Of a DNA stretch of 47,167 nt, positions 7,711-13,226 are shown piece after piece. Origin of the DNA: a virus (Duplodnaviria > Heunggongvirae > Uroviricota > Caudoviricetes); the IMG/VR virus record IMGVR_UViG_2861084961_000002. The stretch is one strand, 5' to 3'. The notes beneath the pieces are model-generated. The model searched no databases and was not told the origin of the DNA. It worked only from the letters and a program-made list of their open reading frames with translations. Numbering within the stretch: position 1 is the first letter of the stretch; each line of letters opens with the position of its first letter. A program made the translations under genes and the position numbers.

Positions 7711-7782
7711 TATTCCTTCGCTACCATCCATTGGAGGCCATCCTTCCTGACCATTTCCATCATTCCAGTCGAACTCACACTG
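7711..7782 (-). pseudogene. 3' fragment of the early-left gene split by the IS insertion (partner fragment 9031-9266)
   Basis: Removing the IS and one copy of the 3-bp duplication restores a continuous frame ...YGVVCEFDWNDGNGQEGCGLQWMVAKE* ending at 7710-7712. Confidence 0.55.
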
Positions 7783-7810
7783 AAGTGGTCAACAAAAACT
7801 GGCCACCGAG

Positions 7811-8958
<1,148 letters not shown>

Positions 8959-9030
8959 TATGGCACCTGTGTTGTTCTGAGGTGAGCATATCACCTCTGT
9001 TCAGGTGGCCAAATTCAGTAAACCACTTCA

Positions 9031-9435: not shown

Positions 9436-10333
<898 letters not shown>

Positions 10334-10491
10334 CTGGATTCTCTTGTCAGTTAGCTTTGGTGGTGTGTGGGAGTCGTAGTCCTGAACGAAAACACCCCAC
10401 GATTGGCTCATTTGCAGCTAATCCGGATTCGCACTTCCGGCCAATGTTTCGTTTCGTATCACACACCCCAAAGCCTTCTGCTTTGAATGCT

Positions 10492-10525
10492 GCCCTTCTT
10501 CAGGGCTTAATTTTTAAGAGCATCA
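10492..10525 (-). promoter_or_regulatory. nutL: nutL (boxA and boxB)
   Basis: Minus-strand reading TGCTCTTAAAAATTAAGCCCTGAAGAAGGGCAG; boxB hairpin GCCCTGAAGAAGGGC. Confidence 0.85.
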
Positions 10526-10558
10526 CCTTCATGTGGGTTAGTGCGTCCTGCTGGTGTG

Positions 10559-10624
10559 TTTAGTATCACCGCTAGTGGTATTTGTGTCAACACCGCCAGA
10601 GATAATTTATCACCGCAGATGGTT
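10559..10624 (-). promoter_or_regulatory. pL promoter with operators oL1, oL2, oL3
   Basis: TATCACCGCTAGTGGTA, CAACACCGCCAGAGATA, TATCACCGCAGATGGTT; -35 TTGACA and -10 GATACT on the minus strand. Confidence 0.9.
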
Positions 10625-10777
10625 ATCTGTATGTTTTTTATATAGATTTATTTTTTGCAGGGTTGTGTGGCTTGGGAGGTGATCGAGAGATCAGAATTGC
10701 GTTGTTTAGTGAGTTGCACCTATTAATTTTAAAATAAATACAATTGGTTATGTGTTTTTAGGTGGGGCGATCGTGAG

Positions 10778-10807
10778 GCAAAGAAAACCCGGCTCGGTGG
10801 CCGGGTT
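10778..10807 (-). terminator. Rho-independent terminator after the NYN-domain gene
   Basis: Stem AACCCGG/CCGGGTT followed by TTTTCTTTG on the minus strand, 8 nt after the stop codon. Confidence 0.6.
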
Positions 10808-10814
10808 GATGGGA

Positions 10815-11672
10815 TTATCGTTTATTTCTTTGATGTTTCTTTGCAGACTCAGCTTGAGTGTTTCCATACCTGCGTTTACCGCTATTGTTTTTTCCCCTAG
10901 GCTTGCCTTTTTTTCGATCTTCCCACCAGTCAGGTGCCGGGTCTGGCTCAACATGTAAAGCATCGGCAAGTCCTGATATCAAGCTGTATGACTGAACTCC
11001 ATCAATGTGCTCTGACAGTGATGGGGTAACATTCTGTCTTAGTGGATCAAGAATAAAATCAATACCTTTAATTCTGGCGTGTTTGGCGGCAGGCACAAAG
11101 TCTGAGTCCCCAGCAACAAGGACAATTACATCAACAAGTTTTTCATAAGCTAAAGTCGTGATATCCATCCCTAGCTTGATATCAACTTGTTTTTGTTTGA
11201 TGTCATAGTAAAAATCATCATTTGTCAGTTCATCCCATTTTTTCGTTCCTTTCATCAGAGCATCAAGGGAGAATGTAGTTAGTTGCCATCGCTTATTATC
11301 AACAAGATTCCCTAATCTTAAGGCTGTTTTTCGAGTTTTTCTTAACTCTTCATGCAGCTCCGTTCTCAGAATATATGATTTTTCGAGTTTGAAATTCTTG
11401 CGACCAGGCGTCTTATTGCCAGGCTCAGGAAGTGGAAGGCGTGTTTGAATGTCGAGTGGTGGACAGTCATAGAAGTAAATTCTATAAAGCTCAAGCGGTT
11501 CCCTACGTTCTTGTGATTGACGTTTTCCATTAAGATGGGAAAGAACCATTGACCATATTACTTTCATTATGCATTGCGCAGTCAGTTCATGCTCGGCGAA
11601 GTGTTTACGATGCGTAGCATGAACACGCTGCATGAAAAAACCCGCATCAATTAAAATTGCTGCTTTCTTCAT
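10815..11672 (-). CDS. NYN-domain (PIN-like nuclease fold) protein with lysine/arginine-rich C-terminal tail; occupies the rexA/rexB position downstream of cI
   Basis: 285-aa ORF; N-terminal AAILIDAGFF and central VIVLVAGDSDFVPAAKHARIKGIDFILDPL match NYN hallmark motifs from memory; not recognised as RexA or RexB. Confidence 0.75.
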   Translation of the reverse strand: MKKAAILIDAGFFMQRVHATHRKHFAEHELTAQCIMKVIWSMVLSHLNGKRQSQERREPLELYRIYFYDCPPLDIQTRLPLPEPGNKTPGRKNFKLEKSYILRTELHEELRKTRKTALRLGNLVDNKRWQLTTFSLDALMKGTKKWDELTNDDFYYDIKQKQVDIKLGMDITTLAYEKLVDVIVLVAGDSDFVPAAKHARIKGIDFILDPLRQNVTPSLSEHIDGVQSYSLISGLADALHVEPDPAPDWWEDRKKGKPRGKNNSGKRRYGNTQAESAKKHQRNKR

Positions 11673-11799
11673 AAGAGTCCCAAAAAAATAGCCCAGAGCC
11701 GTTATGCAGATATTAACAATTGTCTGCGAACGGGGCTGGGCTTGGTTTAATTAATCTATGCCAAGTTGACTGTGCCGTCAACATAAAACTTACTTCCTA

Positions 11800-12516
<717 letters not shown>

Positions 12517-12523
12517 TTAAATC

Positions 12524-12589
12524 TATCACCGCAAGGGATAAATATCTAACACCGTGCGTGTTGACTATTTTACCTCTGGCGGTGATAAT
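12524..12589. promoter_or_regulatory. oR3-oR2-oR1 operators with divergent pRM and pR promoters
   Basis: TATCACCGCAAGGGATA, TAACACCGTGCGTGTTG, TACCTCTGGCGGTGATA; pR -35 TTGACT (12561-12566) and -10 GATAAT (12584-12589). Confidence 0.9.
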
Positions 12590-12604
12590 AGTTGCATGTA
12601 CTAA

Positions 12605-12814
<210 letters not shown>

Positions 12815-12821
12815 ATAACCC

Positions 12822-12853
12822 CGCTCTTACCCATCCCCGCCCTGAAAAAGGGC
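12822..12853 (+). promoter_or_regulatory. nutR: nutR (boxA CGCTCTTAC, boxB GCCCTGAAAAAGGGC)
   Basis: Both motifs read directly downstream of cro. Confidence 0.85.
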
Positions 12854-12932
12854 ATCCAATTAAACCACACCTATGGTGTATGCATTTATTTGCATACATT
12901 CAATCAATTGTTATCTAAGGAAATACTTACAT

Positions 12933-13226
12933 ATGGTTCGTGCAAACAAACGCAACGAGGCACTACGAATCGAGAGTGCGTTGCTTAACAAAATCGCAAT
13001 GCTTGGAACTGAGAAGACAGCGGAAGCTGTGGGAGTTGATAAGTCGCAGATCAGCAGGTGGAAGAGAGACTGGATTCCCAAGTTCTCAATGCTGCTTGCT
13101 GTTCTTGAATGGGGGGTCGTTGACGACGACATGGCTCGATTGGCGCGACAAGTTGCTGCGATTCTCACCAATAAAAAACGCCCGGCGGCAACCGAGCGTT
13201 CTGAACAAATCCAGATGGAGTTCTGA
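12933..13226 (+). CDS. cII: CII transcriptional activator
   Basis: 97-aa product MVRANKRNEALRIESALLNKIAMLGTEKTAEAVGVDKSQISRWKRDW... inside track ORF 12873-13226. Confidence 0.95.
   Translation: MVRANKRNEALRIESALLNKIAMLGTEKTAEAVGVDKSQISRWKRDWIPKFSMLLAVLEWGVVDDDMARLARQVAAILTNKKRPAATERSEQIQMEF

Follow-up and report, generated by a model that had tools for sequence, protein, structure and literature searches.

A lone NYN-domain gene with its own promoter and a conserved terminator-like leader RNA in the rexAB slot of a lambda-type phage and on other mobile elements

In the 47,167-nt Caudoviricetes sequence IMGVR_UViG_2861084961_000002 of the IMG/VR collection (the window; positions below are those of this stretch), the segment that in phage lambda carries rexA and rexB is occupied by a cassette with a single open reading frame (ORF), encoding a 285-amino-acid (aa) protein with an NYN domain of the PIN-like nuclease fold. 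We found that this gene and its relatives, in phages, on plasmids and across several bacterial phyla, are tightly coupled to a promoter and to a covarying, uncatalogued, terminator-like RNA in the 5' leader, and this coupling is the main new result of the analysis. Taken alone, the gene would be a modest find: an annotated but unstudied nuclease-fold moron in a known exclusion-gene slot.

A promoter and a terminator-like leader RNA upstream of NYN genes

The 127-bp spacer between the cI repressor gene and the NYN ORF, which is part of the insert, holds in this order a sigma-70 promoter (11781-11753), a 53-nt hairpin, the U-tract AUUUUUUU, the sequence GGGA and the ATG (Table 1). The promoter is shared by the relatives: a TTGAC[GA] -35 hexamer and a TAnnnT -10 hexamer occurred at fixed distances from the hairpin in 32/35 distinct upstream variants from diverged hosts, the TAnnnT hexamer of the relatives ending ~8-9 nt upstream of the hairpin, and transcription should therefore start at the hairpin foot. 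Either UGGA or GGGA is found at the position equivalent to the putative Shine-Dalgarno sequence in Tatumella, Yersinia, Photorhabdus and Xenorhabdus. The -35 element itself lies within a dyad, TTGAC-N5-9-GTCAA (11765-11781, minus strand), which recurs in about one third to one half of the diverged promoters (Escherichia phage ev099, Tatumella, Yersinia, Edwardsiella, E. albertii and P. syringae) and could be an operator for a regulator or for the NYN protein itself.

The leader hairpin consists of three stacked helices and a conserved 12-nt apical loop, and its fold in the window has a predicted free energy of -24 to -26 kcal/mol (z -3.3). Being a GC-rich stem-loop with a U-tract immediately after it on the transcribed strand, it has the make-up of an intrinsic terminator; a simple terminator scanner missed it because the stem is atypically long at 53 nt, with two internal loops besides the apical one. 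We detected a hairpin with a U-tract 14-39 nt upstream of the start codon in all of the NYN loci examined (25/25; free energies of -15 to -26 kcal/mol), which came from Enterobacterales, Pasteurella, Pseudomonas, Halomonas, Acinetobacter and Marinobacterium and from phages of Burkholderia, Moraxella and Streptococcus, as compared with 4/84 neighbouring genes that served as a control.

The pairing is supported by sequence covariation. In an alignment of 21 leaders, 90.9% of the alignment cells are paired, as compared with 28-42% when the partners are slid, and compensatory changes on both sides are present in 15/17 pairs. The covariation score of 0.48 exceeded that of shuffled alignments (0.21; 0/500 reached the observed value) and that of slid partners (0.07-0.12), and RNAalifold independently recovered 14 of the leader pairs. 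Since the alignment contains G-U pairs and the U-tract is one-sided, we take the hairpin to act as RNA rather than as DNA; a reading as a DNA palindrome or operator is disfavoured on the same grounds.

A covariance model built on the leaders of long-form genes (R1) scored 48-86 bits once per long-form locus, on the sense strand and immediately 5' of the NYN ORF, and found nothing else above 25 bits on either strand of 1.1 Mb; most of its matches are training or near-training sequences, so that the model is informative for specificity. In a motif-first scan of IMG/VR for the hairpin core, an NYN homolog followed 31-46 nt downstream in 58/61 contigs (47/50 when only contigs long enough for a verdict are counted), and new variants of the stem with compensatory changes came to light. 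The three exceptions have neither the promoter nor an NYN gene, and their hairpin and U-tract follow the Q antiterminator gene on the late strand. In one of them, locus L153 (3550-3620, plus strand), the lone hairpin stands before tRNA, holin and lysozyme genes in a tR'-like position; in the other two, as at locus L164 (11810-11890, minus strand; the same as L110), it stands before a pair of genes encoding an Stk-like Ser/Thr kinase and a PP2C phosphatase. The lone hairpin at a tR'-like site argues that the element can work as a terminator in its own right.

Comparison with Rfam 15 gave no match at E <= 1 in the window segment 10400-12700, no gathering-score match at the leaders of 11 other loci, and none at E <= 5 in the leader of locus L077. 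A second class of leader was found before the short-form genes of the family (see below) outside the Rhodanobacteraceae, including the plasmid copies. These leaders have the same shape, with a conserved internal loop (5' CAGUA[AC] / 3' CGANC); 81% of the alignment is paired as compared with 30-60% for slid partners, double changes occur in 10/15 pairs, and 0/500 shuffles reached the score. R1 gives at most 19 bits for them, and the two classes are therefore treated as related in architecture only. The short-form internal loop, 5' C-AGUA-[AC] / 3' C-GA-N-C (alignment A7; loci L077, L100, L102 and L105, among others), bears a resemblance to the AGUA/GAA consensus of the sarcin-ricin/loop-E (bulged-G) motif; such motifs often bind proteins.

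The leader is also found apart from an intact nuclease gene. The Stx2a phage Stx2_EH0505 (locus L005, 1055-1544) and ~200 O157:H7 genomes carry an internally deleted second copy of the cassette, lacking the part that corresponds to 10934-11578 of the window; the promoter and the leader hairpin are intact in the L005 copy, which scores 77.7 bits to R1. As the deleted copies keep both elements, the RNA may persist, and perhaps be expressed, without the nuclease.

The NYN protein and its relatives

The ORF is intact, with an ATG start, and contains the sequences to which an earlier note on this DNA, made from the letters alone, had drawn attention (AAILIDAGFF, VIVLVAGDSDFVPAAKHARIKGIDFILDPL and a basic tail). 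The NYN fold proposed there was upheld by both a profile match and a structural model. The protein matches PF01936 (NYN) with 36.8 bits, above the gathering cut-off of 24.2 (E = 6.8e-9), over residues 158-205 only, the profile missing the N-terminal half because of a family-specific insert; all 120 homologs among the matches listed carry PF01936, fragments excepted. PHROG 5783, of unknown function, covers the whole protein, matches in NCBIfam were all sub-threshold, and a sequence-profile search of the PDB returned no solved relative even at E <= 10. The AlphaFold2 model, built from a 43-sequence alignment, is confident (predicted local distance difference test, pLDDT, 86.9; predicted template modelling score, pTM, 0.79), with disorder confined to the last ~30 residues, and its three-layer alpha/beta/alpha PIN-like core superposes on solved NYN structures. 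This core fold and its acidic active-site pattern are shared with LabA-like NYN proteins (PF01936/COG1432; VPA0982, PDB 2qip) and with the NYN domain of MARF1 (PDB 5yaa), whereas the present family is ~130 residues longer, the extra parts being a helix after alpha-1, a beta-hairpin/helix insert at about residues 70-160, a C-terminal segment P..P.WW and the disordered tail.

The catalytic Asp pattern also proved as anticipated: D9, D69, D164, D170, D189 and D191 are invariant in 43 homologs with a mean identity of ~50% (a true residue number is the alignment number plus one, as the alignment reference lacks Met1). To judge from the motifs, the acidic residues would fit an NYN metal site, with an Asp after strand 1, an Asp in K-x-V-D and a G-D-x-D motif. 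Also invariant are R114, K115, R119 and W129, all within the family-specific insert, and the P..P.WW segment. The assignment as an NYN/PIN-like nuclease is solid, and the nuclease activity is predicted from it; judging by the fold and by the structures closest to it, the substrate is more likely RNA than DNA, and the protein is most probably an endoribonuclease. The Lys/Arg-rich tail, counted in the earlier note among the marks of the protein, is present here and is restricted to the enterobacterial/Vibrio/Pasteurella clade; it is not a family hallmark. In the Pseudomonas homologs (for example, P0049, P0070, P0074 and P0082), the tail is acidic and finishes with a conserved D-x-[DE]-P-G-[VLI], which a partner protein may recognise as a short linear motif.

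Bacterial members of PF01936 had no tested function as of a 2017 classification (PMC5499597). Whether the gene was already a characterised component of a described phage, as the earlier note had asked, has a divided answer: in RefSeq the ev099 product is named "NYN domain-containing protein", and we found no experimental study of it. Our literature search, whose coverage did not extend to the prophage screen of Brenes and Laub (2025), returned no paper dealing with the gene, with the RNA motif or with RNA partners of NYN nucleases. In addition, the PGAP annotation pipeline splits the intact 285-aa ORF into a "PIN domain/hypothetical" pseudogene and a 117-aa "NYN domain-containing protein" (WP_137413698.1), as seen at loci L002 and L003 (5001-5858; E. 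coli TUM1880 and strain 104) and in many RefSeq E. coli chromosomes, probably due to truncated O157:H7 remnants serving as evidence. Owing to this recurrent mis-annotation, annotation-based screens miss the full NYN gene.

The family is large. A word-indexed search found 7035 homologs, and an exhaustive search of clusters at 50% identity gave 331, 1246 and 2911 at E <= 1e-30, 1e-10 and 1e-3, respectively; almost all homologs are single-domain proteins of 200-290 aa. A Pfam census of 210 neighbouring genes revealed no conserved partner gene or operon, and the NYN gene is a lone, mobile cassette. The identical gene is intact in 74/5426 complete E. coli genomes, with internally deleted or truncated remnants in ~200 further ones, mostly O157:H7, and 48 Stx2a-converting phages carry the cassette. 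In E. coli phages, the same cassette sits behind three types of cI (the lambda type, the 2B8/CP-933H type and the Stx2a-phage cI). Elsewhere, relatives follow a LexA-type repressor gene (P22-like Proteus phage Brookers), lie between an XRE repressor gene and the integrase gene (Streptococcus phage Javan84), adjoin the integrase gene (Burkholderia phiE202, beside a BrnTA pair; prophages of Halomonas and P. syringae), sit on the opposite strand between Q and the lysis genes (prophages of Edwardsiella and E. albertii), or occur downstream of glmS in Proteus chromosomes.

Relatives were also detected on 169 plasmids, mostly conjugative, 136 of them conjugative Campylobacter plasmids, and the modules altogether span Pseudomonadota, Campylobacterota, Deinococcota and Bacillota. 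On plasmids from Campylobacter (L167) and Thermus (L169), the short-form gene follows a very large SNF2/helicase-related gene, and on the Thermus plasmid it shares 4 nt with the beginning of an N-6 DNA methylase gene. The surroundings are reminiscent of a restriction or anti-restriction island. In the Rhodanobacteraceae, the short form (~220 aa) is chromosomal, among housekeeping genes that include those for a pseudouridine synthase and a release factor.

The cassette within the lambda-type immunity region

In the window, the NYN ORF lies directly downstream of a lambda-type cI gene, with oL/pL and N on its other side. In blastn comparison with lambda (NC_001416), homology ends at 10807, corresponding to the rexB stop codon (lambda 35826), and restarts at 11796, 4 nt beyond the cI stop (lambda 37223), so that 988 bp stand in place of the 1396 bp that carry rexA and rexB. 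This agrees with the single protein in the rexA/rexB slot described in the earlier note: across the replaced segment there is one ORF, no DNA homology to rexA or rexB, and no Pfam match except NYN. The GC content of the cassette (0.37-0.43) is below that of the flanking cI and N genes (0.47-0.50). The region is 100% identical to phage ev099.

Other parts of the earlier description needed correction. The cI gene had been called lambda-identical, and cI and pL/oL untouched; they are of lambda type and conserved, but cI is identical to that of lambda at 233/237 residues (differences T3A, K70N, R129K and D138G), the flank from N to t_imm has 92.6% identity, and the operators and pL carry a few substitutions. 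The hairpin at the cassette's downstream end had been assigned to the cassette as its own terminator, an assignment we reject, as it is lambda t_imm. Its hairpin (10786-10807) and T-run have the same stem as in lambda, the loop alone differing, and lambda homology breaks exactly where this stem ends, placing t_imm inside the lambda-homologous flank. The NYN transcript of an ev099-like cassette is thus predicted to end at a borrowed terminator. Simple co-expression of the NYN gene with the repressor, also presumed earlier, is doubtful given the conserved promoter of the cassette and the terminator-like hairpin and U-tract between cI and the ORF.

Table 1. Features of the cassette and its surroundings in the window
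Feature	Position	Strand	Basis or remark
Replacement cassette	10808-11795	-	Promoter, leader RNA and NYN ORF; blastn boundaries against lambda NC_001416
NYN-domain (LabA-like, PIN-like fold) protein, 285 aa, predicted metal-dependent endonuclease	10815-11672	-	
Weak Shine-Dalgarno sequence GGGA (putative)	11678-11681	-	5 nt before ATG, abuts U-tract; proposed from sequence
U-tract AUUUUUUU	11682-11689	-	Directly 3' of hairpin; together an intrinsic-terminator-like element in the 5' leader
Leader RNA hairpin	11690-11742	-	AGCCCAG-CC-CCGUU-C-GCAGA-[CAAUUGUUAAUA]-UCUGC-AU-AACGG-CU-CUGGGCU
-10 hexamer TAGATT	11753-11758	-	Consensus scan; predicted start a few nt before hairpin
-35 hexamer TTGACG	11776-11781	-	Consensus scan, TTGACG-17-TAGATT, 9/12 matches
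cI repressor, lambda immunity type (context)	11800-12513	-	233/237 identical to lambda cI
lambda t_imm terminator	10778-10807	-	Terminator scan; lambda alignment, stem conserved; outside insert
pL promoter with oL operators (context)	10562-10590	-	Promoter scan, TTGACA-17-GATACT; lambda alignment

The interval from cI to N is described as a mosaic hotspot for accessory and defence genes expressed in lysogens, such as rexAB and BstA (Degnan 2007, as cited in PMC7067206 and PMC8585504). On the far side of N, a 167-aa ORF with a C-terminal CxxC...CxxC pattern (9514-10017, plus strand) has the position and orientation of lambda sieB and abuts the N stop. Within the compared stretch (9901-13000), lambda homology stops at the N gene (10010), and this neighbouring exclusion slot therefore appears to hold different cargo. 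An IS3-family insertion with two transposase ORFs (7811-8629 and 8656-8994, minus strand) accounts for ~1.25 kb that is extra as compared with ev099, at about 7750-9000 in the early-left operon.

Possible functions and comparison with known systems

We tentatively favour the explanation that the module is a self-contained mobile cassette in which a sigma-70 promoter and a self-limiting leader control a lone NYN endoribonuclease that probably serves to exclude competing elements. The promoter looks constitutive, and its ~60-nt 5' leader would fold into the three-tier hairpin followed by the U-tract. Transcripts from pRM or pRE that leave cI would meet this block 57 nt past the cI stop, and those from the cassette's promoter would meet it ~60 nt after their start, so that most transcription may end as a short hairpin RNA, with the nuclease made only by low-level read-through. 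The nuclease, in turn, probably recognises its own leader, as an autoregulatory site or as an antidote, because the loops are conserved far beyond the needs of termination and the class of leader tracks the clade of the protein. As an accessory (moron) function of temperate phages and plasmids, the cassette would most likely bring a benefit by excluding or aborting competing phages or mobile elements through RNA cutting, a role we favour because of the mobile lifestyle and of the kinds of slot occupied (rexAB, BstA, Stk and sie-type loci).

A defence role, as put forward in the earlier note, is thus plausible from slot and lifestyle, with the nuclease fold and the record of this slot for exclusion genes on its side and the defence databases offering no real match. 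Several observations weigh against the explanation given above. PADLOC-DB 2.0 gave only sub-threshold matches (HEC-09, E = 2e-4; NYN, E = 1.4e-3; ~45 core residues each). Two other NYN candidates, the distant HEC-09 and "NYND" (WP_001399740.1) from the DefensePredictor screen, failed to protect against the phage panels used in published work, and NYND bears no validated-system name. The signal of defence genes in the neighbourhoods is weak, consisting of scattered PADLOC matches without a proper background. The gene has decayed in the ~200 E. coli genomes with remnants; the Rhodanobacteraceae short-form clade is chromosomal and mostly without the leader, and the wider NYN family is therefore not purely one of mobile elements or defence. 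In addition, a single hairpin offers no obvious antiterminator fold, so that regulated attenuation stays hypothetical. Separately, identity of the protein with DS-3 ("split PIN") of DefensePredictor was considered and rejected, as DS-3 is WP_022645725.1, an unrelated protein of 340 aa.

An addiction or abortive module akin to type III toxin-antitoxin (TA) systems, in which the abundant hairpin RNA would neutralise an NYN toxin, and a halt in transcription, upon loss of the plasmid or prophage or upon shut-off by an infecting phage, would let the labile RNA decay and free the nuclease, seems to us unlikely. The terminated RNA would then be the antidote or sensor of the nuclease, in a phylum-spanning, repeat-less analogue of type III TA, and its loss would lead to abortive infection or addiction; the main benefit could then be maintenance of the mobile element, not defence. 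Such a module would account for the order of promoter, structured RNA, terminator and nuclease ORF with no protein partner, for the conserved loops and internal loops that differ between protein clades, for the presence on conjugative plasmids as well as in prophages, and for the chromosomal clade that mostly lacks the leader. However, Tandem Repeats Finder (TRF) detected no tandem repeats in 10700-11900, of the kind that type III antitoxins have; the fold is NYN, not ToxN/AbiQ; the toxin activity is itself hypothetical; and the hairpin can also be found on its own, as a plain terminator.

We likewise regard as doubtful a regulatory RNase that adjusts how long transcripts of the prophage, plasmid or host persist, for example in lysogeny or the lysis-lysogeny switch, and autoregulates via its leader. 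The gene does sit in lysogeny modules beside repressors and integrases, NYN candidates have been negative in defence screens, and autoregulatory stem-loops are known for RNases, among them the rnc and rne leaders and that of Regnase-1 on its own mRNA. RexA is described, moreover, as having a role in the lysis-lysogeny switch, and the cyanobacterial NYN protein LabA takes part in feedback on gene expression (PMC5499597). But the same cassette occurs in unrelated slots, antisense to phage operons, on plasmids and in the Proteus chromosome, which argues against a role tied to the circuitry of one phage. A structure-specific DNA nuclease akin to flap endonucleases (FEN-like), attacking replication or recombination intermediates of incoming DNA, is improbable, the fold and its structural neighbours pointing to RNA. 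Least credible is a gene that brings no benefit, its product being a housekeeping-type RNA-processing enzyme carried along by mobile elements as a neutral passenger: the chromosomal short forms among housekeeping genes and the decay in O157:H7 would suit this reading, but at a mean identity of ~50% the catalytic residues and many more do not vary, both the promoter and the leader have been conserved, and the cassette was acquired repeatedly into classic moron slots across phyla.

If the self-limiting cassette we favour is correct, its architecture suggests in concrete terms how a nuclease that may be toxic is held in check, and disregard of the native regulation in cloning might explain why NYN candidates scored negative in defence screens. 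The module could also be an entry point to the functionally uncharacterised bacterial PF01936 proteins (PMC5499597).

Among proteins suspected of defence from their context, HEC-09 (PADLOC) and "NYND" (DefensePredictor) likewise have NYN domains; the match to HEC-09 is weak (46 residues, E = 2e-4), and HEC-09 differs in its N-terminal domain. A further parallel, to the idea that the nuclease acts on its leader, is provided by Regnase-1, which cleaves a stem-loop in its own mRNA. Together with the other antiviral RNases of PIN/NYN type in eukaryotes (Regnase-1/MCPIP1, KHNYN and N4BP1), it turns a PIN-like endoribonuclease fold against viral RNA (PMC5499597); these enzymes form a different family (RNase_Zc3h12a, PF11977) with extra RNA-binding domains, and the comparison with the present protein is at the level of fold class.

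With lambda RexA/RexB, the cassette has in common the slot (from the cI stop to t_imm), the orientation and the end terminator. RexA and RexB, however, are two proteins, a DNA-binding and a membrane one, transcribed with cI from pRM, whereas here a single, predicted soluble nuclease-fold protein with no relation to them in sequence or fold has its own promoter and a terminator-like leader. BstA of prophage BTP1 and similar single-gene abortive-infection proteins are likewise lone accessory genes directly after the repressor gene, in lambdoid and P22-like prophages, and the BstA locus is described as carrying at its 5' end an element for self-immunity, aba (PMC8585504). BstA is not an NYN protein, and aba is reported to act as DNA, whereas the element here points to RNA.

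The type III TA systems ToxIN, CptIN and TenpIN run in the order of promoter, non-coding RNA, intrinsic terminator and endoribonuclease gene, which the layout of the cassette resembles, also occur on plasmids and phages, and also have no protein antitoxin. In position alone, the hairpin and U-tract between the promoter and the NYN ORF stand where these systems have their intrinsic terminator. Here, in contrast, one hairpin makes up the RNA and doubles as the terminator-like element, and the nuclease is NYN/PIN-like rather than ToxN/AbiQ-like.

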